A program made the position numbers and the translations under genes. Below the pieces are notes generated by a model. It did no database searches. It saw nothing but the letters and a program-made list of their open reading frames with translations, and was not told the origin of the DNA. A stretch of DNA of 64,000 nucleotides from Planctomycetota bacterium (GTDB lineage Bacteria; Planctomycetota; B15-G4; JADJEK01): NCBI GenBank assembly GCA_044225365.1, contig JBGAIQ010000002.1, positions 116,451 through 180,450 of the forward strand. The letters run 5' to 3'. Shown piece after piece: positions 56 through 53,444 of the stretch. How positions within the stretch are numbered: the stretch's first letter is position 1; the number at the start of each line of letters is the position of its first letter.

Positions 56-3000
56 TCAGTCGATGTAGAGGAACTCGTTCAGATTCATGATCGTGAGCGC
101 GAGCGCGGCCATGGCGTGCTGTGCGCTGTCCACGCGCGGGAGCGCCGCCTCGATCGTCGTTTTGCCGGAGGACATTGCGAGTCGCTCGAGCGTGATCCCA
201 CTGCCGTAGGTCTTGATCCCGACGCGTCCGCTCCGCGTGGCCGGCGTTCCGCCGTCGTTTCCCTCGAGGGAGATCGGAGGCTGACCTTCCTGCGAGATCA
301 CGGCGTGCACCTTGGCGCCCGCGAGACTCACGACGAGCTCGACCGGAACGAGTGTGCGGATCGCCGCCGCTCGTCGCGCGAGTTCCGTCGCGACGCCGTT
401 GTCGTGCGACAGCAGTATGAGGGCGCCCGGCGAACTCGCGCTCGGCGGTTCGATGCGGACCTCGATCCCGGCAGCGACGTCGCCGTCCACCTTGCCGCGT
501 ACGAGCAACCCGCAGTACGGCGAGTCCTCGTGCATTTCGAAACGGGCGGCGACCTCGCCGTCGACGAGTTCGTGATCCTTCCACAGCGCGCACGGACCTT
601 CGAGGCGATCGACCTCGTACGTCACGTTGTAGTCGTTGCCGAATCGGCCCTTCAGCACTTCGAACGTGTCGGCCGGTGCGCGCAGGATGCGATCGCCCGC
701 GAGGATCGCGAGGAATCCGCGTTCGAGCCGCGGGGGGACGAGTGACTCGATCACGGTCGATGGCGCGCGCGTCGCGACGGCCGCCGTCTCACGCTCCACG
801 AAAGCTCGCGCCGCGGTGAGTTCGCTTGGAGTCGGCTTGCGCGAGAGAGCCCGTTCGAAGACGAGTTCGATCGCGCGGGACGTGTCGCCCTTCGCATCGG
901 CGAGCACGCGGGAGGCGAACGCTTCGGACTGGCGGCCCGCGAAGTCGCCATTCAAGAGTTGCAGCGCTTGCGTCGGGACGGTCGTCACCGCGCGTCGTCC
1001 TTCGGGGAGCGCGGAGTTCGGACAGTCGAAGGTCTCGAGCAGGGGCGTGAGCAGGTTGCGCTTCACGAACGCGTAGAGCGAGCGGCGCTGCGTCTCCGCC
1101 GCGGGCGAGATCCTCATTCCTTCGCCCGGCCGCGACAGTCCGGCGAGCGCTTCGCGGGGCAAGGGCTCGAAGAAGCTCGGGCCGCCGCGAGTCGTCACGA
1201 GACTGCCGCTCGCCGCGAGGATCGAATCGCGCAGCGTCTCCGCCTCGAGGCGATGGCGATTCTGGCGCCACAGCAGTTGATTGCCGGGATCGACGAGGCT
1301 CGCTCGCTTCGCGACGGCATCGTCGACGGTCGAATCCTGACGATACGTGGACGAGAGCAGGATCTCGCGATGCAGCCACTTCAGGCTCTCACCGTGCTTC
1401 ACGAACTCGCTCGCGAGATGATCGAGGAGTTCGGGATTCGTGGGGGGCGCGCCGGCCTTGCCGAAGTCGTTCGGCGTCGGGACGATTCCCTCGCCGAAAT
1501 GATGCTGCCACACGCGATTCACGATCACGCGGGCGGTGAGCGGATTCGAGGAGTTCGCGATCCACTCGGCGAGCACGCGGCGGCGACCGCTCGATTCGGC
1601 GTGCGCGGAGCGGGTGATCTTGGAGGGCATCGCCGCGTCGTCGCTCGGCGCGAGCGCCCGCGGGAAGTGCGGCGCGACCTCTTCAGCGGGTGACGAGGCC
1701 TGGCCGCGAACGAGCAGATGCGTGACGGGCGGGGGAGTCGTGTTCTCGCGGGCGCAGAGCGCCCAGTCGAGATGACCCTGGAACGACTCGCGAATCGTGA
1801 GCCGCTCGCGTTGGAGGCCGAGCAATTGGATCGCGCGAGGATGGTCCTTCGAATCGAGGAGATTGAGCGCGCGCTGTTCGTCGATGCCGCTCTTGACCGC
1901 ATCGATGATCTCGCGCTGTTTCGCGTTGCGGTCCTTCTCCGGGGTGTCCCACGCGTCCTTCAATCGCTTCGCCGTCTTCGCCCGCTCCTCGATCACGAGC
2001 GTCCGCGCTCGTTCGACGAGGTCGGCGGCCTCGCTCTCGATCGCTTTCTTGCGCTCCTCGCGTTCGGCATTCCACTTCTTCATCGCCGCGGGATCGGAGC
2101 TCAGCATCGCGAGCGTCGGCGAGTCGGGCGCGAATTTGCCATCGTCGTAGCGCCGGAGGTTGCGGAGGAACGCGAGCAGTCCGTAGTAGTCGGTCTGCGG
2201 GATCGGATCGAACTTGTGATCGTGACAACGCGCGCATCCGATCGTCGTCCCGAGGAAGCCTTCGCCGATCGTGCGCACCATGTCGTCGAGTTCGTCGAAC
2301 TCGGCTTGGTCCATGTCGTCCGGCTCGCTGTCCCACGGGCCAAGGCGGTAGATCCCGGTCGCCACGATCGACTCTTTCGTCACCGCGTCGAGTTCGTCGC
2401 CCGCGAGCTGCTCGAGCACGAAGCGATCCCACGGCTTGTCCTGATTGAACGAGTCGACGACGTAGTCGCGATACCGCCAGGCGAAGGGCTTCTCCTGATC
2501 GCGTTCGTACCCCGAGGTCTCGGCATACCGCACCACGTCGAGCCAATGCCGCGCCCAGCGCTCGCCGTACTCCGGTCGCGAGAGGAGATCGTCGACGAGG
2601 CGCGCGTAGGCGTCGGGCGCCGGATCCAGAACGAAGCGATCGATCTCCTCTGCCGAGGGCGGCAGACCGATGAGGTCGAAGTAGACGCGACGCGCGAGCG
2701 TCGCCTTTGCCGCCGGCTCTGCCAGCATGAGCCCCTTCGCTTCGAGCTTGGCGAGGACGAAGGCGTCGAGCGGCTTCACGACGCGATCTTCGGCCTTCAC
2801 GGTTGGAACGGCCGGCGCCACGACCGGGCGGTATGCCCACCATTCGCGGCCCTTCGCGATGTCGATCTCCGATTCGCTCGACGTGTTGGATGCGGTGTTC
2901 GAAGCGAGTGCCGTCGGCCACGGTGCGCCCAGTTCGATCCATTGTTCGATCACTGCGATCTCGTCGGCCGCGAGCTGCTGCTTCGGCGGCATCTCGAGCG

Positions 3001-3325
3001 ACTCGTCGGTCCACTTCAGCGCCTTCACGAGCAGGCTCTTCGCCGGTTCGAACGGGACGACGACCGCTCCGGAATCGCCACCCTTCTTCAGAGAATCGGC
3101 ATCGGCGAATCGCAATCCGCCCTTCGGCCGCGCGACGTTCGGGCCGTGACACTTGAAGCAATGCGTGTCGAGGAGTGGGAGCACGCTCTTCGTGAACAAG
3201 GCTTCGCCGGTGTCGTCCGTCGCGCGCGGGCCGCAAAGCGCGACCGATGCAACGCCCCCCGCGGCGAGAGCGAATGTCGAGAGGGCGCTCCGCGCGATGG
3301 CGGACCGAATCGAACGAGGGGGCAT
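56..3325 (-). CDS. Planctomycete-type PSCyt/PSD1 (DUF1549/DUF1553) cytochrome-c-domain protein
   Basis: There is a 1,130-aa ORF. Trimmed to the Met at 3325 it gives MPPRS followed by a hydrophobic signal peptide. A CFKCHGP motif (CxxCH heme-binding site) lies near the N-terminus. The length and composition match the family that is abundant in Planctomycetes. Confidence 0.8.
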   Translation of the reverse strand: MPPRSIRSAIARSALSTFALAAGGVASVALCGPRATDDTGEALFTKSVLPLLDTHCFKCHGPNVARPKGGLRFADADSLKKGGDSGAVVVPFEPAKSLLVKALKWTDESLEMPPKQQLAADEIAVIEQWIELGAPWPTALASNTASNTSSESEIDIAKGREWWAYRPVVAPAVPTVKAEDRVVKPLDAFVLAKLEAKGLMLAEPAAKATLARRVYFDLIGLPPSAEEIDRFVLDPAPDAYARLVDDLLSRPEYGERWARHWLDVVRYAETSGYERDQEKPFAWRYRDYVVDSFNQDKPWDRFVLEQLAGDELDAVTKESIVATGIYRLGPWDSEPDDMDQAEFDELDDMVRTIGEGFLGTTIGCARCHDHKFDPIPQTDYYGLLAFLRNLRRYDDGKFAPDSPTLAMLSSDPAAMKKWNAEREERKKAIESEAADLVERARTLVIEERAKTAKRLKDAWDTPEKDRNAKQREIIDAVKSGIDEQRALNLLDSKDHPRAIQLLGLQRERLTIRESFQGHLDWALCARENTTPPPVTHLLVRGQASSPAEEVAPHFPRALAPSDDAAMPSKITRSAHAESSGRRRVLAEWIANSSNPLTARVIVNRVWQHHFGEGIVPTPNDFGKAGAPPTNPELLDHLASEFVKHGESLKWLHREILLSSTYRQDSTVDDAVAKRASLVDPGNQLLWRQNRHRLEAETLRDSILAASGSLVTTRGGPSFFEPLPREALAGLSRPGEGMRISPAAETQRRSLYAFVKRNLLTPLLETFDCPNSALPEGRRAVTTVPTQALQLLNGDFAGRQSEAFASRVLADAKGDTSRAIELVFERALSRKPTPSELTAARAFVERETAAVATRAPSTVIESLVPPRLERGFLAILAGDRILRAPADTFEVLKGRFGNDYNVTYEVDRLEGPCALWKDHELVDGEVAARFEMHEDSPYCGLLVRGKVDGDVAAGIEVRIEPPSASSPGALILLSHDNGVATELARRAAAIRTLVPVELVVSLAGAKVHAVISQEGQPPISLEGNDGGTPATRSGRVGIKTYGSGITLERLAMSSGKTTIEAALPRVDSAQHAMAALALTIMNLNEFLYID

Positions 3326-3474
3326 GGATGGGAGCTTCACGAGTAAGGCGATGATAACTCGCGCCGCAATCTCCGGCAAAACCGCCCGGTCAGGATCCGT
3401 GGAGAAATCGAGCGAGCCGGTAGACTCCGTGGTCTCTCTCGACCGCATTTCGTGCGGGCGAACCGCCCGAGCCG

Positions 3475-4879: not shown

Positions 4880-4999
4880 CTCATGAAGTCTACGGGCCCA
4901 AGCCCCGGCGCTTCGTTCTCCGCAACGAGCCCAATGGGATCGATAGGAATAAGGTCGCTCTGCGTGCCGGTATTTGTCTCTTCTACACGTTGGTCTTGC

Positions 5000-5494
5000 T
5001 CAAGAGATCCACCACATGTGGTCCTCGGTCACGATCCAAACTCCACTCCGTCGCTCGACCGTATACGTGTTTCCCGATGCGCTCAACCCGCCCTCGAAAT
5101 ATCCGCCCTCGACCTCGACCTTGTCGTCACCGATCCATTTGATTTCTCCCACGTTGAAAGACAGGCCCTTTGCGCCATCTATCTTGTGATGAATGCGAGT
5201 GTCGAGGGGGGACTGCGCGCCTGCGGAGCCCGGCAACACACGCGGCGAGATGTCTTTGAATCTCGCGAGAAACTGCGGGGTCGGGTCTACCTTACCGCCG
5301 TCGATCGAGATGAAGTAGTATCGCACTTTATTCTGCGCCGCAGATGCGTTGTGCTCGAATTCGTAGCGGAAGACTGCTTCGCGGACGTCATCGACCTCGG
5401 CGCGTCGCCGTTCTTCCTGTCGCGCCTCCGGACTCATGCATGCGAACGCAAGGAAAGCGCAGGCCAGAAACGCGACAGCAGCGCGAACGGACAT
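5000..5494 (-). CDS. Small lipoprotein (hypothetical), within the lower-GC island
   Basis: The ATG at 5494 begins MSVRAAVAFLACAFLAFACMS, a signal peptide with a lipobox. The product is 164 aa. Local GC is clearly lower than in flanking DNA. Confidence 0.5.
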   Translation of the reverse strand: MSVRAAVAFLACAFLAFACMSPEARQEERRRAEVDDVREAVFRYEFEHNASAAQNKVRYYFISIDGGKVDPTPQFLARFKDISPRVLPGSAGAQSPLDTRIHHKIDGAKGLSFNVGEIKWIGDDKVEVEGGYFEGGLSASGNTYTVERRSGVWIVTEDHMWWIS

Positions 5495-6133
5495 GAGAGA
5501 TCCTTTCGATTGAGCGCACGGCGAACGCGGAGACAGAGAAGCGACTGAACGCGCTAAGGGTGTTACGTGGTCGCGGCCAAGACGGGTTCCAAGCGTTGAG
5601 CATCCTACCTCCCGTCCATCGTATTCTTCCGGCCGAGCACTGTGCTCCCCTCGGAGAAAGAGATGCGCCTTCGGGGCCGAGGCGGCGAGAAGGACGAGAT
5701 CGGCGACGTCGGTGCCGAGGATATCGACTGCGTGCCGGCGTCGGTGATCGTGCGCGAGTACGTGCGACCGCCGTACGCGAGCCGGATCGCCCCCCTCGAT
5801 CGCCCCGATTCGGCTGGGGGGCTGGGGGGCGACCGCGTAGACCATCCTCAGGGCGGCTCGCAACCGCTAGTAACCAACAGGGGACTGTTCGGATCCCATC
5901 CGACTCGGGGTGGGGCGGGCGTGACCACGAGCAGGGTGGATTCGCGTGATGGGCGTGGCCCGGCGGTACGCCGGGAACAGTCGCTCGAGCCGATGTTCGC
6001 CGTTGCTTCGATCCCGTCTCGCCTGATAAAAGCACAGTCCGAATGTGACTCCGCAATGAACTCGGCCTGCAAAATTCCCGCATTTGTGGCGGATGTCGAG
6101 CTTCTCTTTTCGAGCACCCGTAGGCAGCCGCCC

Positions 6134-7606
6134 ATGAACAACCGCGTCGTTCGCAGTTCGGTCTTCATCGCGTTCTTCACGACCGCCTTCGGTTCGTCTA
6201 TCGGCGTTGCTCCATCCGCCCACGCCCAGTCGATGAAAACTCGCGTTGGCAACATCGAACTCGAACGGGGTGTCCCAACCGAACAAAGCGCGCATGAGCT
6301 GTTCGACAGCATGGATTTCCAGCGTGCCTGCCAGGCGTATCTTTGGGCGCTGCCCGCTGTCGGGTTCGAGTATGTACTCCGTGAACAAAGGAATGAGCTC
6401 GGCGCAAGAAACGGGGACGTCGTCGTTTGCAAGGGCTACCGAGACGTGAGTCGGTTCCTCACGCCGAATGTCACCACGCCTTATATCATCGGCTTCATGG
6501 ATCTGGCGGAAAGCGGACCGATGATGCTGCAAGTTCCCGAAGGTGCGATCGCCGGATCGGCGATGGACTTCTGGCAGCGCCCAATCACCGACTTCGGCAT
6601 GACGGGTCCGGATCAGGGCAAAGGAGGGCTGTATCTCCTGGTCGGGCCGGGGCAGTCGCTGCCTTCGCAGTTGCCCCCGGCGGCAATCGTCGTTCGATCG
6701 CCGACGTTCGGCGTTGGCTTCTTCTACCGCGCGCTCGACACCGATCCGGCGAAGGCCGAAGCGATGGAAAAGGCCATCCGCACCTACCCGTGGTCGCAGC
6801 GTGACAATCCGCGCGAGACACAACACCTCAAGCCCAACGCGCCGCAGACAGCGACCTTGCCTCGTGGTATGGAGTACTGGGAACAGTTGGCTGCCGTGAT
6901 CAACCGCGAACCCGTGGATGACCGTGATCGGTTCTTCGTGGCGATGCTCAGACCGTTGGGTATCGAACGCGGAAAGGAATTCAAGCCAGACGAGCGGCAG
7001 CGCCAATTATTGAAGGAAGGTGCTCAGGTTGGCGAGTTGATGGCGATGGCGAATTCCTTCGACAAGCGATTCCCTGGTTCGCGGTATCAACCGAATGCTC
7101 ACTGGGATTACGTCATCATGGCGGATCCGGCGCAGGACCTTCCGGACTACAGCCAGCTCGATGAGCGCGGGGCCTACTTCTACGAAGCTGTTGCCCTGTC
7201 GAAGGGGATGGTCACGAAGACACCAGGGGTCGGTCAGGCTTATCTAGGAAGTTATCGCGACAAGAACGGGCACGCCTTCGATGGAGGACTGTCCTACCGG
7301 CTCCGCGTGCCACCGCATCCGCCCGCCAAGCAGTTCTGGTCGGTGACGGTCTATGACACGCAGACGCGCGGCATCATTCAGAACACGCAACAGATCGCGG
7401 ATCGTTCTTCCCGGCAGGATCTGGTCACGAATGCGGATGGATCCGTAGATATATACTTTGGGCCAACGGCGCCCGCGGGCCTCGAAAAGAACTGGATTCC
7501 CACCGTTCCCGGCGGATCGTGGTTCGCCTACTTTCGTCTCTACGCCCCGTTGGAGCCGTATTTCGACCGAACCTGGCCGCTTCCGGACATCGAACTCGTG
7601 AAATGA
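6134..7606 (+). CDS. Secreted DUF1254/DUF1214-family protein (hypothetical)
   Basis: The ATG at 6134 begins MNNRVVRSSVFIAFFTTAFGSSIGVAPSAHAQ, a signal peptide. The C-terminal half carries an FWSVTVYD-type motif that I recall as typical of DUF1214. This assignment is from memory, not a search. Confidence 0.6.
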   Translation: MNNRVVRSSVFIAFFTTAFGSSIGVAPSAHAQSMKTRVGNIELERGVPTEQSAHELFDSMDFQRACQAYLWALPAVGFEYVLREQRNELGARNGDVVVCKGYRDVSRFLTPNVTTPYIIGFMDLAESGPMMLQVPEGAIAGSAMDFWQRPITDFGMTGPDQGKGGLYLLVGPGQSLPSQLPPAAIVVRSPTFGVGFFYRALDTDPAKAEAMEKAIRTYPWSQRDNPRETQHLKPNAPQTATLPRGMEYWEQLAAVINREPVDDRDRFFVAMLRPLGIERGKEFKPDERQRQLLKEGAQVGELMAMANSFDKRFPGSRYQPNAHWDYVIMADPAQDLPDYSQLDERGAYFYEAVALSKGMVTKTPGVGQAYLGSYRDKNGHAFDGGLSYRLRVPPHPPAKQFWSVTVYDTQTRGIIQNTQQIADRSSRQDLVTNADGSVDIYFGPTAPAGLEKNWIPTVPGGSWFAYFRLYAPLEPYFDRTWPLPDIELVK

Positions 7607-12426: not shown

Positions 12427-14115
12427 ATGGGCGTCAGCACTTCCGACATCATCTTCCAGCTCCAGAAGGTCACCAAGTCCGTCGGCACGCGAACCTTGTT
12501 CGAGGACGCGTCGCTGTCGTTCCTGAAGGGCGCGCGCATCGGCGTCATCGGGCCGAACGGCATGGGCAAGTCGACGCTCCTCAAGATCATGGCGGGAGTC
12601 GACAAGGAGTACTACGGCGAGGTGTTCCTCGCTCCCGGCACCAAGGTCGGCTACGTGCCGCAGGAGCCGAAACTCGATCCCGCCCTCACCGTGATGGGCA
12701 ACGTCGAGCAGGGCGTGAAGCCGATCCGCGACATGATCAAGAAGTACGAGGAGATCAGCGCGAAGCTCGGCGAGGAGATGCCCGAGGAGCAGATGAACGA
12801 CCTCATCGAGAAGATGGGGCGATTGCAGGAGGAGATCGACGCGAAGGACGCGTGGGAGCTCGACCGGCACATCGAACAGGCGATGCACGCCCTGCGCCTG
12901 CCGCCGCCCGATTCCGCCGTCACGCATCTCTCGGGCGGCGAGAAGCGTCGCGTCGCGCTGTGCCGCACGCTCCTCGAACATCCGGATCTGCTGCTGCTCG
13001 ACGAACCGACGAACCATCTCGACGCCGACACGGTGCTCTGGCTCGAGCGCCATCTGCAGGATTACCAGGGCACGATCGTCCTCGTCACGCACGACCGCTA
13101 CTTCCTCGACAACGTCGTGGGCTGGATGCTCGAGGTCGATCGCGGTGAGTTGCGCCCCTACGAAGGCAACTACTCGAGCTACCTGGCGCAGCGTGAGGAA
13201 TACTATCGCCAGCGGCAGAAGGCCGACGACGAGCGCGCGAAGCTGATCAACCGCGAGCTCGAGTGGATCCGACAGAATCCGAAGGGCCGCGGCACCAAGA
13301 GCAAGTCGCGCATCGCGCGGTACGAAGAACTCGTCTCGCAGCACAGCAAGACGATCAAGGACGAGCTCACGCTCCACATCGGCTTCACGAAGCGCCTTGG
13401 CGACAAGGTGATGGTCGTGAAGGACGTCTCGAAGAAGTACGGCGACCGCGTCGTCTTCAAGGGCCTCGACTTCGAGCTGCCCGCCGGCGCGATCCTCGGC
13501 GTCGTCGGCCCGAACGGCACCGGCAAGACGACGCTCATGCGCATGATCGTGGGCCAAGATTCAACGGCGAAGCCCGACACGGGCGCGATCGAGATCGGCG
13601 CCACGGTCGATCTCTGCTACCTCGATCAGAGCCGCGAAGCACTGAAGGACGACGTCTCGGTCTACGACGAGATCACGGGCGGCAAGGACATCATGAAGGT
13701 CGCGGGCAACGACGTGAACGGCCGCGCCTACGTCTCACGCTTCAACTTCCGCGGCTCCGACCAGCAGAAGAAGATGCGCGACTGCTCGGGCGGCGAGCGC
13801 AATCGAGTGCAGATGGCGAAGATGCTGGCCCGCGGCGGCAACCTCATCCTGCTCGACGAACCGACGAACGACCTCGATCTCACGACGCTGCGCCATCTCG
13901 AGGAAGCGCTCCTCGAATTCCCCGGCAACTGCATCGTCGTCACGCACGACCGCTGGTTCCTCGACCGCATCGCGACGCACATCCTCGCCTTCGAGGGCGA
14001 CGGGACCGTGTACTTCCATCCCGGCAACTTCGAGAGCTGGCGCGAGTACCGCATCTCGCTCGGCCTGAAGACCGACGAGCCGGTGGGCGCGCATCGCCGC
14101 TTCAGCGGGTCCTGA
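12427..14115 (+). CDS. ettA: ABC-F ATPase EttA (energy-dependent translational throttle)
   Basis: The 562-aa product has two ABC cassettes: Walker A GPNGMGKST and GPNGTGKTT, and signature motifs LSGGEKRRVAL and CSGGERNRVQMA. The length and N-terminus (MGVSTSDIIFQLQKVTKSVG) are typical of EttA/YjjK. Confidence 0.9.
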   Translation: MGVSTSDIIFQLQKVTKSVGTRTLFEDASLSFLKGARIGVIGPNGMGKSTLLKIMAGVDKEYYGEVFLAPGTKVGYVPQEPKLDPALTVMGNVEQGVKPIRDMIKKYEEISAKLGEEMPEEQMNDLIEKMGRLQEEIDAKDAWELDRHIEQAMHALRLPPPDSAVTHLSGGEKRRVALCRTLLEHPDLLLLDEPTNHLDADTVLWLERHLQDYQGTIVLVTHDRYFLDNVVGWMLEVDRGELRPYEGNYSSYLAQREEYYRQRQKADDERAKLINRELEWIRQNPKGRGTKSKSRIARYEELVSQHSKTIKDELTLHIGFTKRLGDKVMVVKDVSKKYGDRVVFKGLDFELPAGAILGVVGPNGTGKTTLMRMIVGQDSTAKPDTGAIEIGATVDLCYLDQSREALKDDVSVYDEITGGKDIMKVAGNDVNGRAYVSRFNFRGSDQQKKMRDCSGGERNRVQMAKMLARGGNLILLDEPTNDLDLTTLRHLEEALLEFPGNCIVVTHDRWFLDRIATHILAFEGDGTVYFHPGNFESWREYRISLGLKTDEPVGAHRRFSGS

Positions 14116-14124
14116 CGGACTGCC

Positions 14125-14703
14125 TCAAGACGTCTTGCGAAGCTTGCTCGCTCGCGGCCGCGCGACCGGCTTGCGAGGAGTCGGCTCGCGTTTCGTTGCG
14201 GGCTTCGGCTTCGTCCGGGGGTTTGCCTTGCCGATCGCGGCGGTCATCGAGAGGACTCGCTTGCCGGCCCGTTTGCTCACGGGCGGCAGGATCGCGAGCA
14301 CGTAGGACTGCAGCGACGACGGGACCTGGGCCGCCGGCGGACCGAGCGGGGTGCGATTCTCGAACAGGATCTCGGGGATGACGGCGCGCGCGAGGCGGCG
14401 CTTCACGCGGTAGATCACGTCGCCGTCGACGATCATCGCGAAGGGCAGGAGCACGAGCGGGGTCGTGGCGAACGACTGCGTGGTCTTGAACGCGCCCACG
14501 GCGACGACGACGGAGCGCTGCGCGATCTCGATCGTGAACTCGTCGCCGTTCGCGGACGGCACGCCGTGCACGTCGATGGTCGCCACGGCGAGGAAGCGTC
14601 CGGCTTCGTCGCGGCGGATGAGGAACGCTGGCCAGAGCTGGACTCGGCCTGGCGATGGTTCAGGATTCGTCTCGACAAGGATCGCGGGCGTGCGATCAAG
14701 CAT
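14125..14703 (-). CDS. Hypothetical protein (192 aa) with a basic Pro/Lys-rich C-terminal tail
   Basis: The ATG at 14703 begins MLDRT. It is the only ORF in the 14116-14937 gap. This is the 3' portion of the 611-aa antisense ORF in the track; the rest of that ORF overlaps the thioredoxin gene and is rejected. Confidence 0.4.
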   Translation of the reverse strand: MLDRTPAILVETNPEPSPGRVQLWPAFLIRRDEAGRFLAVATIDVHGVPSANGDEFTIEIAQRSVVVAVGAFKTTQSFATTPLVLLPFAMIVDGDVIYRVKRRLARAVIPEILFENRTPLGPPAAQVPSSLQSYVLAILPPVSKRAGKRVLSMTAAIGKANPRTKPKPATKREPTPRKPVARPRASKLRKTS

Positions 14704-14937: not shown

Positions 14938-15912
14938 ATGCGCACCACCCTTCGCAAACTCTCGATCGCCGCCATCGCGGCAACCTTGCTCGCCGGGTCG
15001 GCCCTGGCCGGCGACTCCTGGCTCACGAGCTACAAGGACGCGCTCGCCAAGTCGAAGGAAACGAAATTGCCGGTGATGGCGGACTTCACCGGGAGCGACT
15101 GGTGCCACTGGTGCATCTCGCTGAAGAAGGAAGTCTTCGACACCGACGAGTTCAAGAAGTGGGCCGCGGACCACGTGATCCTGCTCGAACTGGACTTCCC
15201 GCAGGGCAAGAAGCTGAGCAAGGAGCTCACGAAGCAGAACGAAGACCTGAAGGCGAAATTCAACATCGAGGGCTTTCCGACGCTCGTCTTCCTGAACGGC
15301 GACGGCAAGGAACTCGGTCGCGGCGGCTACGTCGAAGGCGGTCCCAAGCCGTGGATCGAGGCGGCGGAGAAAGCCATGAAGGGCGAGCCGAAGGACGCCG
15401 CGAAGGCGCCCGAGGCGAAGGCCGGCGAGGACAAGGGCCCGTGGATCGAGAGCTGGGACGATGCCGTCAAGCGCTCGAAGAAGGAAGGCAAGATGATCCT
15501 TGCCGACTTCACGGGCAGCGACTGGTGCCCCTGGTGCATCAAGCTCCACGACGAGGTGTTCAACACGCCAGAGTTCAAATCGTGGGCGAGCGCCAACGTC
15601 GTGCTGCTGCTCCTCGACTTCCCGCATCACGAACAGGCCGATTCGATCAAGAAGCAGAACGAGAAACTGCAATCGAAGTACGGGATCCAGGGCTTCCCGA
15701 CCGTCCTCTTCCTCGACGCCGCGGGCAAGAAGAAGGGACAGATGGGTTATGAAGCGGGCGGTCCGAAGCCGTGGATCGAGAAGGCCGCGAAGATCGCAGG
15801 CAACAAGAAGCCGGCGCCGGCTCCCAAAGACGCGCCCGCGAAGGATTCGAAGGACGGCGAGAAGACCGACCCGAAGGCGGGCGGCACCGATCAGAAGCCC
15901 ACGAAGAACTGA
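14938..15912 (+). CDS. Secreted tandem thioredoxin-like (Thioredoxin_7/DUF255-like) protein with two CxxC motifs
   Basis: The signal peptide is MRTTLRKLSIAAIAATLLAGSALA. There are two repeats of LPVMADFTGSDWCHWC / MILADFTGSDWCPWC, each followed by a thioredoxin-fold helix. The C-terminus is rich in K, P and A. Confidence 0.8.
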   Translation: MRTTLRKLSIAAIAATLLAGSALAGDSWLTSYKDALAKSKETKLPVMADFTGSDWCHWCISLKKEVFDTDEFKKWAADHVILLELDFPQGKKLSKELTKQNEDLKAKFNIEGFPTLVFLNGDGKELGRGGYVEGGPKPWIEAAEKAMKGEPKDAAKAPEAKAGEDKGPWIESWDDAVKRSKKEGKMILADFTGSDWCPWCIKLHDEVFNTPEFKSWASANVVLLLLDFPHHEQADSIKKQNEKLQSKYGIQGFPTVLFLDAAGKKKGQMGYEAGGPKPWIEKAAKIAGNKKPAPAPKDAPAKDSKDGEKTDPKAGGTDQKPTKN

Positions 15913-16073: not shown

Positions 16074-17969
16074 ATGCCCGAACTCTCCTACACCGACCGT
16101 TTGAACCACGACTACGAGCGCGTCCACACGGCGAAGGAAGACGCCTTCTGGACGGCCTACATGGGCCTCGCCGACGATGCGTCGGCCGCTCGCGCGGAGC
16201 TGGTGAAGAAGGAGCAGGAGTTGAAGGCGTTCCTCGCCGATCCCAACCGCCTCCGCACGACGCGCGATGAGCTCTCCCGGGTCGATCGCGCGCAGCATGT
16301 GGGGCATGACTCGCACTCGAAGGGCGTTCCGACCGCCGCCGAGATCGTGAGCCTGAAGGGCTGGGTTCGCACCTTCGAGGCGCACGTGATCGAGAGCGAG
16401 GAGGCGCGCGGACTCTCCGAACGACTCGTCGAGATGGAGGGCGCGCTCGCCAAGGAGCGCGGCAAGTTGAAGCTCGGGTACGACGATCCCCAGAAGGGCT
16501 TCGTGGCCGCGAACACCGTGAAGCTCGCCAACCTCGTCGCCAACGATCCCGACGAACGCATTCGGAGATCGGCGTGGGAGGGTATGCGTTCGATCGAACC
16601 GCACGTGCTCGGGGCCGGGTTCATCGAACTCGTGAAGGCGCGAAATCGCTTCGGCCGGATGCAGGGCGGCGAGGACTTCTACGACGCCACGGTGCGCCGC
16701 GTCGAGGGGCTCTCGAAGGCCGAGATCTTCGCGCTGCTCGACGAACTCGAAGCGAAGACGCGAGAGCGCGGCAAGCAGGCGATCGACGAGCTGTCGCGCA
16801 CCGTCGCGAGTTCGAGCGTGAAGGTCACGCCGTGGAACGTGCGTTACCTCGTCTCCGGCGACGTGAGCAAGGAGCAGGATCCGTACTTCGTGTTCTCCGA
16901 GGCCGTCGCGCGCTGGGGGAGGAGCTTCGCCGCGCTCGGCATCCAGTACCGAGGTGCGCGCCTCGTCCTCGATCTCGTCGACCGCAAGGGCAAGTACGAG
17001 AACGGATTCATGCACGGCCCGAAGCCGGCCTGGCGCGATCATGGCGTCTTCCGCCCGGCGCGCATCCAGTTCACGGCGAACGCGATCCCGGGGCTCGTCG
17101 GCGCGGGCAAGCGCGCGACCGAGACGCTCTTCCATGAAGGCGGTCACGCCGCGCACTTCGCGAACATGGACATGCCGGCGCCGTGCTTCTCGCAGGAGTT
17201 CGCTCCTTCGTCGGTCGCCTTCGCCGAGACGCAGAGCATGTTTCTCGACAGCCTGCTCTCCGACGCCGACTGGCAGGCGCGTTACGCCCGCACGCGTCAG
17301 GGAGCGCCGATGCCGACCGAGCTCGTGATGCGCGGCATTCGCGAGAGCCAGCCGTTCGCCGCCTGGAACCTGCGCGCGATGCTCGCGGTGTGCTACGGCG
17401 AGAAGGCGATCTACGAGATCCCGGAGTCTGAGCTCACGATGGATCGCGTGCTGAAGGAGCTGCGCGACGTCGAGCGTCGCATGCTCTTCCTCGAGGGTTC
17501 GCCGCGCCCGATCCTCGCCGTGCCGCACCTGCTCGCGGGCGAGAGCAGCGCTTACTACCACGGCTACGTGCTCGCGGAGATGGCCGTCGCTCACACGCGT
17601 CACTACTTCAAGGAGCGCGACGGACATCTCGTCGACAACGAGAAGATCGGTCCCGACCTTCGCACTCACTACTGGACCGACGGCAACGCGATGCGCTTCA
17701 CCGATTTCGTCGCGCGGCTCACCAAGAAGCCGCTCTCGGCGGAGGCCCTCGCCTTCGACGTGAACCGCGACGCGGAGACGGCGTCGAGTGACGCCCGCGC
17801 CGCGATCGCGCGGTTGCAAGAGATCGCGCCTTTCACGGGCAAGGTCGATCTCGACGCGTCGATCCGCATCGCGCACGGCAACGAGACGATCGCGGAGGAT
17901 CCCGATTTCGAGAAGCTCAGTCGTGAATTCGCGGGCTGGATCGAGAAGCTCGAGGCGAACAAATCGTGA
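16074..17969 (+). CDS. M3-family zinc oligoendopeptidase (PepF/thimet-like)
   Basis: FHEGGHAAHF is the HExxH zinc motif. FAETQSMFLD, about 30 residues downstream, matches the M3 FAEvPSQ third-ligand block. At 631 aa the length is typical. Confidence 0.75.
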   Translation: MPELSYTDRLNHDYERVHTAKEDAFWTAYMGLADDASAARAELVKKEQELKAFLADPNRLRTTRDELSRVDRAQHVGHDSHSKGVPTAAEIVSLKGWVRTFEAHVIESEEARGLSERLVEMEGALAKERGKLKLGYDDPQKGFVAANTVKLANLVANDPDERIRRSAWEGMRSIEPHVLGAGFIELVKARNRFGRMQGGEDFYDATVRRVEGLSKAEIFALLDELEAKTRERGKQAIDELSRTVASSSVKVTPWNVRYLVSGDVSKEQDPYFVFSEAVARWGRSFAALGIQYRGARLVLDLVDRKGKYENGFMHGPKPAWRDHGVFRPARIQFTANAIPGLVGAGKRATETLFHEGGHAAHFANMDMPAPCFSQEFAPSSVAFAETQSMFLDSLLSDADWQARYARTRQGAPMPTELVMRGIRESQPFAAWNLRAMLAVCYGEKAIYEIPESELTMDRVLKELRDVERRMLFLEGSPRPILAVPHLLAGESSAYYHGYVLAEMAVAHTRHYFKERDGHLVDNEKIGPDLRTHYWTDGNAMRFTDFVARLTKKPLSAEALAFDVNRDAETASSDARAAIARLQEIAPFTGKVDLDASIRIAHGNETIAEDPDFEKLSREFAGWIEKLEANKS

Positions 17970-19498: not shown

Positions 19499-20077
19499 TC
19501 AGAACAGTCCGCCGAGCTTCTTGAACATGCCGCCGATCTTCTTGCCGAGGTGGATCGCGTCATTGCCGAGGTTGGTGGCGAGGTGCTTCAGCGTCTTTCC
19601 CATCGAGCGGCCCGCGGTCTTGAACACGTTTCCGATGCCCGACGCGCCGCGCCGCAGGAAACCGAGGGCACCTTCCACGCCGGAACGGATGTGACGGCCG
19701 AGGAAGTCGACGACCGTCCGCTTCAGGGCGCCAAGGACCTGTCCACCCGCGAACTTCACGGCGTGTCCAAGCGCCATTCCGAGGCGCAGGAGGTTGCTTC
19801 CGGCGGCCTTTGCGGTCGAGATCACGTCACCGACGATTCGTCCCGCGAAACCGGGTTGGCTCGCGGCGGCGGCGATCGTGGGCTCGGCCGTGAGCGCGGG
19901 CACGTCGAAGACCACCGCGTCGAACGGGCTTCCCGGGCCACGGAGTCGACTCGCGAGATCGGAAGCGATCCCGCCTGCGGCGGAATCGAGAGCCAGCGAG
20001 GACGCTCTTGAGCCGAGCGCGGTAGCGGAGGTCGCGAGGGTTCTCGAGGCGAGTTCGGGGCGGATCGAGAGGTTCAT
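19499..20077 (-). CDS. Hypothetical Gly/Ala-rich protein with a lysine-rich amphipathic C-terminus (KKIGGMFKKLGGLF)
   Basis: The ATG at 20077 begins MNLS. The third codon position is very GC-rich, consistent with genuine coding. It is convergent with the NUDIX-MBL gene. Confidence 0.5.
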   Translation of the reverse strand: MNLSIRPELASRTLATSATALGSRASSLALDSAAGGIASDLASRLRGPGSPFDAVVFDVPALTAEPTIAAAASQPGFAGRIVGDVISTAKAAGSNLLRLGMALGHAVKFAGGQVLGALKRTVVDFLGRHIRSGVEGALGFLRRGASGIGNVFKTAGRSMGKTLKHLATNLGNDAIHLGKKIGGMFKKLGGLF

Positions 20078-20264
20078 GGGACGAGTCCTTGGGATGGGGG
20101 ATGCGTGCGTCTTGTCTTCGCAGACCCGAGTCGGAGTCTTTCGGGATCTCCGACACGAAATCCCGTCGACCGGCACGATCATGGTCGAAGATCGAGCGCA
20201 TCCATCCTCGGACTCGGCGGTTCATGTTCGGGCCACAGATCCACGTCGCCCCAGGAGAGCCTCC

Positions 20265-21189
20265 ATGAAGCTCCCATCGTCGGTCCTCGCATTCGTCCTC
20301 GTCGCCCTGCCGCTTGCGCTTCCTGCCCTTTCGCAGGATGCCAAGCGCGAAGAAGCGAAGGACCCACGAACCGAGTTCTTCGCCGTCTGTCGCAGTCTCG
20401 CGGAGGCGAAGAGCTACACCGCGAAGGTGACGATCGAAGGGGAGGGGCTGCGCGCGCGAGAACAGCGACCACCGAGCCCTGCTCTTCGAATCGAGATGCA
20501 GGCCGGGCGGCCTCTCGTCGTGACGCTCGAAGGCAAGAAGCTCTCCGCGACGCTCTGGACACAGGGAGACGTCCACGTCGTGCGCGATCCGAGCGGCGAG
20601 GTGCATCCGTTGCCGTTCTTCGGCAAGAACGGTCCGGGAAGGGCCGGGGGCCGGTTGCCCCGCAGTCCGAAGCCACCTCGTGCGCAGGAGGGCTCACCTC
20701 CGACTTCGGCCGGAGAGGGTGCGCCCAACGGCTTCCTGGCGGGCAGACCGCCGCGCCCGGAGGGCGACGAACGTCCGGGCAAGCGCGGGCCTGCGGGAGC
20801 GCTCGTCGCGCGGCTCGCGCAGAACGTTCCCGTGCTCGCGCCGCACGCGCTCCTCGCCGGGATCGACGCCAAGGTCGATTCCGTCGAGAAGAAGGTCGCT
20901 GCCGACGGCTCGATCTCGTTCGTCGCGCGGTTCTCGTCCGAGGCCGCGAAGAGTCTCCTGCCGATGCCGCTCCCGCCCCGCATGGCGGAGGATGCGAAGA
21001 TCGGCGCGACCCTCGAGGTCCAAATCGATGCGGCGACGGGCTCGCCGACGCGGATCGTCCTCGTTCGAGCGTTCGAGGGGGCCGAGAGTGCGAACGAGCG
21101 CTCGATCACGGCGACGTTCGAGCTGTCCAAGGTTGGGGGCGACGAGCGTCGAACTCCCGGCCGATGTCATGAAGTACTTCGCGATATAG
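20265..21189 (+). CDS. Secreted hypothetical protein, probably frameshifted near its 3' end
   Basis: The ATG at 20265 begins MKLPSSVLAFVLVALPLALPALSQ, a signal peptide. This frame runs on to 21386, deep into cdd. Shifting one base at the G5 run (21135-21139) gives a C-terminus ...VELPADVMKYFAI* ending at 21189, 16 bp before the cdd stop. Confidence 0.45.
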
Positions 21190-21204
21190 ATTCTGCGGGC
21201 GTGA

Positions 21205-21594
21205 TCAGCGAGCGAGCGCGTCGGGGCCGAAGGACTCGGGAAGAAGCGCAGCGAGCGATGTCGTCGTGTACTGCCCCGTCGCGGTCGCGAGGTGGATCGC
21301 GACGTCCGTACCGAACTCCCGAATCACCTGACGACAGGCGCCGCACGGCGACGCGCCCGACTCGGTCGCGACGGCGACTGCCGTGACTCGGCGCTGTCCG
21401 CGCGCGACGGCGGCGAAGATCGCATTGCGCTCGGCGCAGATGGTGAGCCCGTAGGAGGCATTCTCGACGTTGCATCCCGTGGTGATCGTTCCATCGTCGG
21501 TCAGCACGGCCGCTCCGACCATGAAGTGAGAATAAGGGGCGTAGGCGAACGGGCGAGCGGCGATCGCGGAAGCGACGAGTCGAGCGGTGTCCAT
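21205..21594 (-). CDS. cdd: Cytidine deaminase
   Basis: The 129-aa product has CAERNAI and PCGACRQ zinc-binding motifs. Confidence 0.85.
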   Translation of the reverse strand: MDTARLVASAIAARPFAYAPYSHFMVGAAVLTDDGTITTGCNVENASYGLTICAERNAIFAAVARGQRRVTAVAVATESGASPCGACRQVIREFGTDVAIHLATATGQYTTTSLAALLPESFGPDALAR

Positions 21595-21934
21595 TGCCGA
21601 ATCGTAGCGGGTGGAATCGCGCGCGACCGGCGTTCGTCGCTCTCGAGTTACCGATTCGCGACGGCGTTACGGGATCGTTCGTCCCGCGGTCGTTTCTTGG
21701 GTGTCACGTCGAAACGGCGCAGGAGGCCTCCTTCGCGCCCGGATCCGGATTCCGTCCAGTTACTTTCATTGCAAGATCGATTAGAGTCTCGCGCGAAGAG
21801 TTGACCGAGGCGGCGTCCGAAGGAGTCGGATCCGCAATTGCTGCTGAGTCTGGTAGCGAACCGATTCACGGCTCGATCGATCCCCCGCAGATCCGAGCCT
21901 CGCGATCGACGAAACCGATCGCGCATCCACGCGA

Positions 21935-24145
21935 ATGCGTGAAAGTTTGGAGGGCGCCTTGGACGCGAAGCGATGGGCATCGATCTCGACGGCGGCGTGT
22001 CTCGCACTCCTGACGGCGGAAGCCTACGCGCGGCAGTGCCCGGCGATGCCGCCGCCGCCAGACACCGGCGGGGCGGGCGGACCGACGACCGGCGGGGGTG
22101 GACCTTCCAGACCGACGACCGGCGGCGGAGGCCCCGCGACGACGGGCGGTGGTTCGGGAGGTCCGACGACCGGCGGCGGTGGAAGTGGTCCTTCGACCGG
22201 TGGCGGGGGTGGGAAGACCCCGGCGACCGGAGGAGGCACGCCTCCGCAGAATCCCGGCCCTTCCGACACGCAGGGTCCACCGACGACGGGTGGCAACGGG
22301 CCGGGGCCGATCGGCGGCGGGGGACCGGCGCCGAGCAGCCCGAGCGGAGGGCCCGCTGGCGGAGGTCCGAGCACCGGGCCGACAGGCGGCGGCCCGCGAC
22401 CGGGATCCGGTCCGCAGGGGCCGACCGGCGGACCGCAACTGCCGAAGGGCGGCGCAGCGGGACTCACCGGTAAGCGCAACAAGAACACGGTCACGCTCGA
22501 CCGCTGGGATCTCTGGTGGGATCTCAACTGCGAGGGCTTCCTCGCCGCCCGCTCCGCCACCGCACCGCAGACCGCGCGCGAGCGTGGTTTCCTGGATGGC
22601 GTCGGCTTCTCCACGCAGCCTGCGGTGAACACGCGTCCGACGCGTTCGGTCGTCGTGGAGGAACTCGTTCCGGCGCTGCGCGTCGCGCTGAAGGATCGGA
22701 ACAACTACGTTCGGGCGGCGGCGGCGACCGCGCTCGGGCGTATCGCACCCACGGAACTTCGGGACGAATCGATCGAATCGCTCTCCGACGCGCTCCATAG
22801 CGAGGACGCGACGGTTCGCGATTCGGCGCTCCTCGCGATCGGATTGCTCGGTGATCGCAGCGTCGTGCGGACTCTGTGGCAGGTGATGAACGACACGCTC
22901 GAAGCGCGGGCGCTCATGAATTCGGCGGGCGGCGTTCAGGACAAGGAGCGTGCATTCGCGATCCTCGGCCTCGGCCTGCTCGGTGGTCGGGAAGCGGCCA
23001 CGCAGTTCGAGAAGCTGCTTGCGCGCAGCGCGACCAAGGACGTCGAGGTCGCGGGCGCGGCCGTGCTCGCCCTCGGGATGCTCGGTGCCGAGGCACAGGA
23101 CTTCGTTCCGAGGCTCGGCGAGATGCTCTGCGATCGATCGCTCGATCGAAGGCTGCGCGCCCAGATCCCCGTCACGCTCGCCCGCATCGGTGAACCTGCG
23201 CTGCCGGTCCTTCCGTACCTCCTCCAACTCTCCCGGGATCAGAAGGAGGACGCGCTCGTTCGGAGTTCGTGCGTGATCGGACTCGGCCGGCTCGCGGCGA
23301 CCTACGATGCAGAGATCCTCGCCGTGCTTCGCGACCTCGCTCACGAGGATCGCGACCCGATCGTTCGGCACTACGCATTGCTCGGACTTGCGCAGATCGG
23401 CGCGAGAGCGACTGATTCGACGCCGAAGGATGTGCTCGGCGGGATCGCCCGCTACCTGACCCAGGAACTCGAGAAGCCGCGCAACACGCTCGACCAGCCG
23501 TGGGCAGCGCTCGCGTGCGGCATCTTCGCCGGTTCGCTGAAGACGGTGTCGACGAGCGGCGCATTGCGACAGAACCTGGTCGAGGAGATGCGATCGACGT
23601 TTCGTTCGATCAGCAATCCGTCGACGAGCGGCGCGTTGGCCATCGGCCTCGGCCTCGCCGCGGCGAAGGACAGCACCGAGGACGTACGGGCGCGCTTCGC
23701 GAAAGAGAGCGACGATTCCCTGCGGGGTCATTTCGCGCTCGCTCTCGGACTCCTCGGCGACGACGCGTCGATCGAATCGCTGCGCAACTGTCTGAAGGAC
23801 GAGGGACGCCCGGAGCTGCGTGAATCGGCTGCGCGCGCGCTCGCACTGCTCCACGATTCGGAATCGCTCGACTCGCTGCTCTCTCGCCTCGAAGGGACGC
23901 CGACGGCGGTCGAGGCTCGCTCGCTCGCCCGCGCCGTCGCTCGGCTGAAGGACCCGGGCGCGGCGACCCGCCTCGCACGTCTCGCGGCCGATCCGAAGCG
24001 CGACTCGAGCGTGCGTTCGGCCTGCTGCGAGGCGATCGGTCTCCTCGCCGAGCGGACCGAGATTCCGTATACGGCACGCCTCACGGGCGACCTGAACGTC
24101 CATTCGGGCCTGAACGCTGCCGCGGACTTGATCGCGAAGCTGTAG
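21935..24145 (+). CDS. Secreted protein with a Gly/Thr/Pro-rich low-complexity N-terminal region followed by HEAT (PBS-lyase-like) repeats
   Basis: There is a signal peptide, then TTGGGG/PTTGGG repeats for about 130 aa. After that come repeated ...VR..A..ALG.IG... HEAT-like units extending to the C-terminus. Confidence 0.65.
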   Translation: MRESLEGALDAKRWASISTAACLALLTAEAYARQCPAMPPPPDTGGAGGPTTGGGGPSRPTTGGGGPATTGGGSGGPTTGGGGSGPSTGGGGGKTPATGGGTPPQNPGPSDTQGPPTTGGNGPGPIGGGGPAPSSPSGGPAGGGPSTGPTGGGPRPGSGPQGPTGGPQLPKGGAAGLTGKRNKNTVTLDRWDLWWDLNCEGFLAARSATAPQTARERGFLDGVGFSTQPAVNTRPTRSVVVEELVPALRVALKDRNNYVRAAAATALGRIAPTELRDESIESLSDALHSEDATVRDSALLAIGLLGDRSVVRTLWQVMNDTLEARALMNSAGGVQDKERAFAILGLGLLGGREAATQFEKLLARSATKDVEVAGAAVLALGMLGAEAQDFVPRLGEMLCDRSLDRRLRAQIPVTLARIGEPALPVLPYLLQLSRDQKEDALVRSSCVIGLGRLAATYDAEILAVLRDLAHEDRDPIVRHYALLGLAQIGARATDSTPKDVLGGIARYLTQELEKPRNTLDQPWAALACGIFAGSLKTVSTSGALRQNLVEEMRSTFRSISNPSTSGALAIGLGLAAAKDSTEDVRARFAKESDDSLRGHFALALGLLGDDASIESLRNCLKDEGRPELRESAARALALLHDSESLDSLLSRLEGTPTAVEARSLARAVARLKDPGAATRLARLAADPKRDSSVRSACCEAIGLLAERTEIPYTARLTGDLNVHSGLNAAADLIAKL
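22060..22450 (+). repeat. Imperfect coding tandem repeat (CCGACGACCGGCGGCGG... units) encoding the Gly-rich linker
   Basis: Direct reading of the nucleotide and protein sequence. Confidence 0.6.
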
Positions 24146-46440: not shown

Positions 46441-46510
46441 ACGGACAGCCGCCCATTGCCCCTTGCATCAGCGCCTGCGGTCGTTTGGATTACGCGCGGA
46501 GGCAGCTTTC

Positions 46511-47917
<1,407 letters not shown>

Positions 47918-48249: not shown

Positions 48250-49170
48250 ATGAGACCGCTCTCGTACCTGGCGGGACTCTCGGCACTGGTGATCACGGGC
48301 CTCGCGCTCGCGGCGCCGCCGAAGCCGAAGATCAAGCCTACGGTGGAGTTCGCCCACACGTGGGAAGCCGCCGTCGCCGAAGCGAAGATGCTGAACCTTC
48401 CGCTCGTGGTGCACAATCACGGGTTCTACTGAGGCCCGTGCTGGGGCATGCATTCTGCCGTGATGCAGAATGACGATTACATCAAGTTCGCGAACGACAA
48501 CACGGTCGAGGTCCTGGCCCTTGGCAGCCTCGACACCGCCGTACAGAAGAACGAAAAGGCCGATCAGGCCAAGATCGCGCGCTACAAGGCGACCGTCAAC
48601 GGCAAGGAAGTCGAGCTGATGGTCGAGTGGCCGAATCTCACGTACGAGGAGATCATCGCCCTCAACCAGAGTCCGGCAGGCCAGTACAACAAGTCCGGAG
48701 GCATCCCCTACACGTCGATCGTGAATCCGTGGGATCTGAAGGAGATGTGGAAGCAGCTCGGCGGAACCGGCGCCTCCACGATCATCGCCGCGGCGACCGA
48801 CGCCAAGAAGCAGCTCGAGAAGGAGCACGGCAAGGGTCTCTCCCGCAAGGATCTTCGCGCGTACAACAAGGCGGACGCCGAAGCGACCAAGCTCACGAAC
48901 GACGGTGAGTTCAGCAAGGCGATCCAGGCCTACGATCCATTCAGCAAGTCCTCGGCGCAATGGCCTCAGAACATGAAGACCCGCCTCGATGCTGCGCGCA
49001 ACGCGGTCATCGAAGCGGCGACTTCCAAGCTCGAAGAGATCGAGTCGAAGGCCGGCACCGATCCGGTCGGCGCCAAGAAGGATCTCGACAAGCTGATGTT
49101 GAAGCTCGGCAAGACCGGGCTCGAGCCCAAGGCGAAGGAACTCGCCCAGAAGCTCGCGACGGGCGGCTGA
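48250..49170 (+). CDS. Candidate selenoprotein: a secreted thioredoxin-fold (Thioredoxin_7-like) protein with a U-G-P-C redox motif and an in-frame TGA at 48430..48432
   Basis: The track ORFs 48199..48432 and 48448..49170 are in the same frame, separated only by a TGA. AGGAGA (SD) precedes the ATG at 48250, which is followed by signal peptide MRPLSYLAGLSALVITGLALAA. The read-through translation is ...LPLVVHNHGFY-U-GPCWGMHSAVMQNDDYIKFANDNTVEVLAL.... This aligns with LPVMADFTGSDWCHWC...KKEVFDTDEFKKWAADHVILLEL of the CxxC paralogue at 14938..15912, with Sec in place of the first Cys. Confidence 0.55.
48451..48472 (+). promoter_or_regulatory. bSECIS-like hairpin downstream of the in-frame UGA
   Basis: CATTCTGC-CGTGAT-GCAGAATG is a perfect 8-bp stem with a 6-nt loop containing GU. 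The stem begins 19 nt and the loop 27 nt after the UGA. This falls within the 16-37-nt window described for bacterial SECIS elements. Confidence 0.45.
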
Positions 49171-49635: not shown

Positions 49636-50367
49636 ATGGTGACCTTTGCCCTGATCACGCTCCTCGTCACGTTCCTAGGCGGATGCCTGCCGCTCGTGAA
49701 GGACTGGAGCCATCGGCAACTCCACGCCGTACTCGCGCTCGCGACGGGCGTCTTCCTCGGCGCCGTATTCCTCCACTTACTCCCCGAGATCAGCGCGAAC
49801 GAGAGCGGCCAGCGGGCGATCTCGCCGCGCACCTTGTGGTTGCTGACGTTGGTCTCGACGCTCGCCGTGTACCTGCTCGAAGCGCTCGTCTTCCGGTCGC
49901 ACGACCACGACGAGGCGCACCGCCATCGGGCGGTCGGATACTCGGCGCTCGTCGGGCTCTCCGTCCATTCGTTCACCGAGGGCATTGCGTTCTGCGTGTT
50001 CGCAGCGGACGTGCGCAGCGCGACGCCGTTCTTCCTCTCGACCCTCGGCCACAAGCTGCTCGACGGCTTCTCGCTCGCGTCGGTGTTTCGACTCGGGGAC
50101 ATGGGCCGGAAACAGGTGATCTTCTGGATGATCGCGTTCGCATCGCTCACACCGGTCGGCATGCTGCTGGGAGAGCGACTCCTTCCCTGCCTCTCACCGA
50201 CGGCGTTTGCCGTCGTGTCGGCGCTCGCCGCCGGTACATTCCTGTTCGTGAGCCTCTGTGAACTGCTGCCGGAAGTCTTCCATCACCGCGAGGACAGCCT
50301 CGTCAAGGTCGGTCTTCTGCTGCTCGGTATCGGCTCCTTCATGGCCCTGCACGAGGTGAGCGGATGA
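49636..50367 (+). CDS. ZIP-family divalent metal transporter (ZupT-like)
   Basis: The ATG at 49636 begins a 243-aa product with 8 hydrophobic helices. A His-rich loop (HDHDEAHRH) is present. HSFTEGIA and HKLLDGF match ZIP metal-binding helices. Confidence 0.75.
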   Translation: MVTFALITLLVTFLGGCLPLVKDWSHRQLHAVLALATGVFLGAVFLHLLPEISANESGQRAISPRTLWLLTLVSTLAVYLLEALVFRSHDHDEAHRHRAVGYSALVGLSVHSFTEGIAFCVFAADVRSATPFFLSTLGHKLLDGFSLASVFRLGDMGRKQVIFWMIAFASLTPVGMLLGERLLPCLSPTAFAVVSALAAGTFLFVSLCELLPEVFHHREDSLVKVGLLLLGIGSFMALHEVSG

Positions 50368-53440: not shown

Positions 53441-53444
53441 GCCG

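Follow-up and report, generated by a model that had tools for sequence, protein, structure and literature searches.

The window analysed here, a stretch of 64,000 nucleotides (nt) from a contig of a Planctomycetota bacterium (GC content 65%), contains at positions 14938-15912 of the plus strand an open reading frame (ORF) for a protein of 324 amino acids (aa; the stop codon is included in the coordinates). The protein consists of two thioredoxin-fold domains resembling DsbH of Chlamydia, and gene and product are referred to below as the tandem gene and the tandem protein. The original prediction had taken it for the cysteine (Cys) paralogue of a candidate selenoprotein encoded at 48250-49170 of the same window. 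We found the tandem protein to be of an ordinary type, exported by prediction, and no cysteine twin of the window selenoprotein but a distant relative.

The ORF starts with ATG, approximately 12 nt downstream of a GGAG, and stops with TGA. GC content was 0.89 at third and 0.42 at second codon positions, a pattern like that of other real genes of the window, and Pfam matches and homologues likewise identified the listed ORF as a coding sequence. A protein identical to its product is present in a public collection (P0001), and the same 324-aa protein was encoded on a second, independent assembly contig of 5 kb with identical neighbours. Scans for promoters and terminators around 14938-15912 yielded nothing informative.

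Domain layout and fold of the tandem protein

The tandem protein begins with a predicted Sec-type signal peptide (aa 1-24, positions 14938-15009, cleavage after ALA). Read by eye, the N-terminus (MRTTLRKLSIAAIAATLLAGSALA, with GD after the cleavage site) combines a basic n-region with a hydrophobic core of 17 residues and an A-x-A site. A hydrophobic N-terminal segment was found in all of the 23 aligned homologues, and residues 1-25 scored below 50 in the predicted local distance difference test (pLDDT) of an AlphaFold2 (AF2) model built on the alignment of the protein's homologues. On these three grounds the signal peptide of the original prediction was upheld as a predicted feature. It is followed by DsbH-like domain 1 (aa 25-148, 15010-15381), a charged, low-complexity interdomain linker (aa 149-166, 15382-15435) whose length varies among homologues, DsbH-like domain 2 (aa 167-290, 15436-15807) and a Lys/Pro/Ala-rich C-terminal tail (aa 291-324, 15808-15909). 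Both domains were modelled as thioredoxin folds with pLDDT values above 90; the signal peptide, the linker (pLDDT below 50 at residues 154-166) and the tail (pLDDT approximately 50-56) were disordered. Tails are variable among homologues, and nearly all two-domain homologues finish with a disordered, Lys-rich tail of variable length (e.g. KSKKKKK). At a guess, the tail may serve in envelope or membrane association.

Each domain contains a CxxC motif and a proline loop of the form G(F/Y)PT. In domain 1 the motif is DFTGSDWCHWC (aa 49-59) with the active site CHWC (C56-C59, 15103-15114), and in domain 2 it is DFTGSDWCPWC (aa 190-200) with the active site CPWC (C197-C200, 15526-15537). The GFPT loops place Pro114 (15277-15279) and Pro254 (15697-15699) in domains 1 and 2, respectively; alignment of the thioredoxin folds with that of Chlamydia pneumoniae DsbH (structure 2ju5) suggests that Pro114 occupies the cis-Pro position. 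Both CxxC motifs and both proline loops were invariant in 23 of 23 two-domain homologues (C56, C59, P114 and T115 in domain 1; W196, C197, W199, C200, P254 and T255 in domain 2). The dipeptide between the cysteines was always xW in domain 2 and was more variable in domain 1.

The two repeats (approximately aa 25-148 and 167-290) aligned with 53% identity and 74% positives over 118 aa (E = 3e-46), a similarity far beyond chance. Together with the paired Pfam matches and the AF2 model this confirmed the two internal repeats with DFTGSDWC(H/P)WC that had been described before. When the domains of the homologues were separated, the two domains of one protein were on average 59% identical, slightly more than the 55% between domains 1 of different proteins, and a neighbour-joining tree gave no clean clades of domains 1 and 2. 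These comparisons suggest repeated duplication or gene conversion between the repeats; saturation could produce the same pattern.

Matches to Pfam families were obtained in two stretches each. Thioredoxin_2 (PF13098, 100.6 bits, E = 7e-29), the best Pfam match, and Thioredoxin_7 (PF13899, 95.7 bits, E = 2e-27) were both above their gathering threshold of 27 bits, and Thioredox_DsbH (PF03190) also matched twice (E = 4e-15). The best NCBIfam model, for the whole protein and for either domain by itself, was the DsbH equivalog NF043050. Against it the whole protein scored 253 bits; domains 1 and 2 alone scored 126 and 132 bits, and the whole protein exceeds the equivalog cut-off of 190 bits only because the two domain scores add up. 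The nearest solved structure by sequence was 2ju5 (phmmer with the single sequence, aa 25-148, E = 8.6e-29), and a profile of 23 sequences matched it with E = 2.3e-39. The FTGSDWCxWC motif and the proline loop of both domains aligned to the same residues of 2ju5. In Foldseek searches with the AF2 model 2ju5 ranked first (E = 6.3e-14, target-normalised TM score 0.80, root-mean-square deviation (rmsd) 2.6 Å, 38% identity), followed by 3f9u, an "exported cytochrome c biogenesis-related protein" and the second-best monomer, and then by DsbD-gamma structures.

The tandem protein shares with DsbH (2ju5; NF043050; PF03190) the thioredoxin fold, FTGSDWCxWC, the G-F-P loop and, between beta2 and alpha3, a DFPxxxxxxxxxxxxN insert; identity is 36-38% per domain. 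The two hosts are members of the Planctomycetes-Verrucomicrobia-Chlamydiae (PVC) superphylum, and export, predicted here, is reported for the chlamydial protein. DsbH differs in being a single domain of approximately 150-170 aa, whereas the 324-aa chain contains two domains plus a disordered basic tail. The chlamydial CxxC dipeptide is MW, as opposed to HW and PW in the tandem protein and GW in the consensus of the two-domain family, and the genomic link with dsbJ in Chlamydia (PMC4217174) was not seen at 14938-15912. The DsbD-gamma and ScsB-type C-terminal domains (2fwe, 1uc7, 1vrs) are of the same Thioredoxin_7-like subgroup with a periplasmic reductive role; DsbD-gamma-type structures matched the tandem protein with sequence E values of approximately 4e-4 to 3e-7 and Foldseek TM scores of approximately 0.65. 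They are, however, tethered to a membrane electron-transport domain, whereas the tandem protein is soluble and without a transmembrane domain.

Relatives and genomic neighbourhood

Among 5.8 billion proteins searched, 3591 homologues were found. The best 120 of these were mostly two-domain proteins of 270-320 aa from metagenome-assembled genomes of Planctomycetes with 45-59% identity, and relatives are annotated as "thioredoxin family protein" or, by JGI, as "protein disulfide-isomerase". The nearest family is formed by two-domain proteins of Planctomycetota and Verrucomicrobiota metagenome-assembled genomes (P0022, P0025, P0061), which share the architecture and the invariant residues of the tandem protein (45-59% identity over 80-90% of the length) and differ solely in linker and tail length and in the CxxC dipeptide. 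Our literature search found no experimental study of two-domain planctomycete or verrucomicrobial members. The peptide pattern DFTGSDWC gave at least 600 matches in GTDB representative genomes; with a best match of 51%, the genome of the window is not one of these representatives. Among the matches listed, two-domain forms occurred in Planctomycetota, Verrucomicrobiota (including Akkermansia), Lentisphaeria, Cloacimonadota and Bacteroidota, and single-domain forms were found in many more genomes than two-domain forms. Two further layouts were seen among the relatives. P0057 and P0105 (approximately 400 aa) have an a-b-a' order like that of protein disulfide-isomerase (PDI), with a middle region lacking CxxC between two CxxC domains, and in P0094 and P0032 (459-490 aa) a tandem DsbH pair is fused to a TlpA/ResA/redoxin-like domain with WCGPC. 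The TlpA-like fusions are a minority of the family.

The presence of PSCyt1/PSCyt2/PSD1 at 56-3448 and the taxonomy of the homologues point to Planctomycetota as the origin of the window. The tandem gene lies between genes for an ABC-F ATPase (12427-14115) and an M3 peptidase (16074-17969). The neighbourhoods of six sampled homologues differed from one another and had no conserved gene neighbours. No DsbD/CcdA/ScsB, DsbJ-like, peroxiredoxin or cytochrome c maturation (Ccm) gene was found beside the tandem gene or beside the six homologues, nor among the scanned ORFs of the window (4883-7606, 19499-24145 and 57686-63910 were outside the scan). With no partner gene and with differing neighbourhoods, the tandem gene looks like a stand-alone housekeeping gene. 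A 192-aa ORF on the minus strand (14125-14703) is divergent from it, has no Pfam match and has a basic, Lys/Pro/Arg-rich C-terminus; gene calling on an independent contig (L001, 156-734) recovered it as well. Elsewhere on the plus strand, 54929-55864 encodes a pyridine nucleotide-disulfide oxidoreductase of 311 aa, of the size and type of thioredoxin reductase. Its neighbours are three SPFH/Band 7 genes plus one for an ArsP-type permease that carries a fused Band 7 domain (50364-54434).

The selenoprotein at 48250-49170 and its relation to the tandem protein

The comparison gene (48250-49170, plus strand) gives by UGA read-through a product of 306 aa with a predicted signal peptide followed by HNHGFY-U-GPCWGMH, where U is the selenocysteine read at an in-frame TGA (48430-48432). 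Three distant loci, L084 (2803-3711), L085 (2779-3705) and L086 (2767-3681), have the same in-frame stop after a conserved N-terminal region bearing the signal peptide, and in them the frame is conserved on both sides of the TGA, which is thus present in four of four aligned loci. The TGA and the next 45 nt or so were near-invariant even at synonymous sites, in loci whose proteins are approximately 47-63% identical. This segment includes an 8-bp hairpin with the loop CGUGAU, 21 nt after the UGA (48451-48472), a candidate bacterial selenocysteine insertion sequence (SECIS). The minimum-free-energy z-scores of the candidate SECIS hairpins were not significant (-0.3 to -0.7; -0.7 for 48451-48472), and the case for a SECIS in this gene is therefore one of nucleotide conservation and not of fold energy. 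No tRNA-Sec or annotated RNA was found in the whole window by Rfam (gathering thresholds) or ARAGORN. The conserved TGA and downstream nucleotides, with Cys at this position in orthologues, indicate a genuine selenoprotein, in agreement with the original prediction. Its gene follows fumarase C (46463-47917) and a small CBU_0592-like ORF, and this gene order is common to the window and L084 (924-3711), whose selenoprotein is 63% identical to that of the window.

The selenoprotein family comprised 112 matches, none with a precomputed Pfam domain, and they fell into two groups. One has products of approximately 236 aa that start just after the UGA; the three that were checked (P0124, P0205, P0217) were selenocysteine forms clipped by gene callers. 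The other has full-length products of approximately 300 aa, and all 15 that were aligned had Cys at the selenocysteine position (mostly HGFYCGPCWGMH). These CGPC orthologues (e.g. P0129, P0141) are 38-50% identical to the window selenoprotein over the full length, and as judged from the alignments they are its true Cys counterparts. No Pfam or NCBIfam model reached its threshold for the family (Thioredoxin_7 against the window selenoprotein, E = 0.018). A sequence profile of the family found nothing significant in the PDB (best thioredoxin match E = 0.17), so that the thioredoxin fold was revealed by the predicted structure only: the AF2 model of a Cys orthologue (pLDDT 90) has a thioredoxin fold with an insertion (approximately residues 35-170) and a helical C-terminal domain (173-295). 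Its best PDB matches were 3f9u, DsbH 2ju5 (E = 7.5e-5, TM score 0.61) and DsbD-gamma.

The original prediction held that the two genes of the window encode a pair of selenocysteine and Cys paralogues, both periplasmic thiol-disulfide oxidoreductases, aligned residue for residue around the redox motif. Both proteins begin with a predicted signal peptide and have a thioredoxin fold of the DsbH/DsbD-gamma type, whose helix 1 starts with the redox motif in either case, and the model of the selenoprotein family has DsbH and DsbD-gamma among its best matches. The 55 columns aligned by profile-profile comparison (hhalign; 93% probability, E = 2.9e-7) extend from strand 1 to strand 2 and include the CxxC helix, and in BLASTP and hhalign C56 and C197 of the tandem protein stood in the column of the selenocysteine or Cys. 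The similarity extends beyond the motif, and with a thioredoxin fold of the DsbH/DsbD-gamma/Thioredoxin_7 type in the N-terminal domain of either protein, a likeness confined to the motif between proteins of different folds was not what the alignment showed. The two proteins are accordingly remote members of the same thioredoxin-fold subgroup; their homology is real but remote. The alignment is colinear with a single gap, but with approximately 23-26% identity over some 55-80 residues "residue for residue" overstated it. A single BLASTP comparison gave E = 0.013, and Thioredoxin_7, well matched by the tandem protein, remained below threshold for the selenoprotein. Homology ends after the 55 columns, and the architectures differ: in the selenoprotein family, with its motif HxHGFY(U/C)GPCWGMH, the fold contains an insertion and is followed by approximately 120 aa of helical C-terminal domain, whereas the tandem protein has DFTGSDWCxWC and two thioredoxin domains in succession. 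The genes are 32 kb apart with unrelated neighbours. Since the selenoprotein has its own CGPC orthologues and the DsbH-like domain has selenocysteine forms of its own, up to 54% identical, the specific pairing is highly improbable and largely refuted; what survives of it is the remote homology within one subgroup.

A scan of metagenomes for FTGSDW-TGA-x-W-C found these selenocysteine forms on 14 contigs. Twelve of the 14 belong to one group of proteins of approximately 340 aa (L087 559-1581, L091, L093 and others) with a signal peptide, DFTGSDW-U-(S/G)WC, a GFPT loop and a helical C-terminal domain. In this group the reading frame is conserved across the TGA, and a hairpin of 7-8 bp with the loop CGUGUU lies 21-22 nt after it. 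A single-domain form (L092, 7750-8397) is 54% identical to domain 2 of the tandem protein, to be taken with caution as a single instance with an ambiguous hairpin, and on an incomplete contig (L094) DFTGTDW-U-SWC is followed by a reading that runs off the contig end. These DFTGSDW-U-xWC proteins of other metagenomes are, by sequence, the DsbH-like domain's true selenocysteine counterparts. A UxxC "thiol:disulfide interchange protein" family is listed under PF13098 in a review of the prokaryotic selenoproteome (PMC13188914). PF13098 is also the best Pfam match of the tandem protein, and UxxC DsbH-like forms exist; the tandem protein differs in having Cys at both active sites.

Function of the tandem protein and its place in the family

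The most likely function of the tandem protein would be that of an exported disulfide reductase or isomerase, and we consider it probable that it is an exported (periplasmic) thiol-disulfide oxidoreductase acting as a DsbH-type reductase. Our analysis established the fold, the active-site residues, the conserved tandem architecture and the absence of a conserved gene neighbourhood, whereas it is inferred that the protein is exported and acts reductively, and so are its donor and substrates. Two papers (PMC4217174 and PMC5193440, each with reference to Mac et al. 2008) describe chlamydial DsbH as similar in structure to thioredoxin and DsbD-gamma, and as a periplasmic, reducing oxidoreductase with weak isomerase activity. 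A Sec-type signal peptide would export the two DsbH-type domains, joined by their flexible linker, each with a complete active site made up of the CxxC in DFTGSDWCxWC and the G(F/Y)PT proline loop. On the chlamydial model, each CxxC would most likely attack disulfides or other oxidised cysteines of envelope proteins and become oxidised in turn, the two modules acting independently or together. A DsbD/ScsB/CcdA-type membrane protein that transfers electrons, with its gene at another place in the genome, would then re-reduce it.

Several points weigh against the assignment as a DsbH-type reductase. Each domain taken alone scored below the NF043050 cut-off and identity to DsbH is only about 36-38%, so that functional equivalence is an extrapolation, and the HW and PW dipeptides differ from chlamydial MW, which may mean a different redox potential. 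Neither the scanned window ORFs nor the neighbourhoods of the six homologues yielded a DsbD/CcdA-type gene, and export was judged by eye only. The JGI names and the relatives that are a-b-a'-like or fused to a TlpA-like domain would fit an isomerase or a relay equally well.

One such alternative is a disulfide isomerase or oxidase like PDI or DsbC, in which the two domains act jointly on one substrate and shuffle or form disulfides. Two catalytic domains on a flexible linker resemble the a-a' arrangement of PDI, both active sites are invariably kept, ERp72, PDI and QSOX fragments were among the two-domain Foldseek matches, and the approximately 400-aa relatives and the JGI annotation point the same way. 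The Foldseek matches to two-domain PDIs had rmsd values of 11-18 Å, however, which means that the superposition holds for single domains only; the 324-aa form is without a dimerisation domain or a b-type substrate-binding domain, the latter being confined to the relatives of approximately 400 aa, and the nearest characterised relative, DsbH, is reported in the passage cited above (PMC4217174) to be reducing, with its isomerase activity weak. We therefore hold an isomerase or oxidase to be unlikely. A dedicated electron shuttle for one envelope system, e.g. cytochrome c maturation, a periplasmic peroxiredoxin or methionine sulfoxide reductase (Msr), would accommodate the fusions to a WCGPC domain (P0094, P0032), the rank of 3f9u among the fold matches and a genome rich in planctomycete cytochrome-domain proteins, such as PSCyt1/PSCyt2/PSD1 at 56-3448. 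Given that these fusions are a family minority, and that cytochrome-maturation, peroxiredoxin and Msr genes were lacking beside the tandem gene and the six homologues, such a shuttle is quite improbable.

Read as a DsbH-type reductase, the tandem gene is a routine envelope redox gene of a family already annotated as "thioredoxin family protein", and it matters little alone. In 2016 DsbH-type domains were described as not reported outside chlamydiae (PMC5193440); in contrast, we find them widespread across the PVC group and beyond, and often duplicated. We hypothesized that the modular DsbH-like proteins (two-domain, CxxC-b-like-CxxC and TlpA-like fusions) are the PVC counterpart of PDI and DsbC. 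They would make up an envelope system common to Planctomycetes and Chlamydia, by which disulfide cross-links in cysteine-rich, proteinaceous envelopes are opened or reshuffled, with the attacking residue switching between Cys and selenocysteine by lineage. We regard this hypothesis as speculative and decidedly unlikely.

The bookkeeping of selenocysteine and Cys forms in the window has to be corrected, as the partners of the UGPC selenoprotein are the CGPC orthologues in its own, so far unmodelled family and not the tandem gene. The selenocysteine forms of the DsbH-like domains, in turn, could allow selenocysteine and Cys to be compared in one well-defined periplasmic reductase scaffold.

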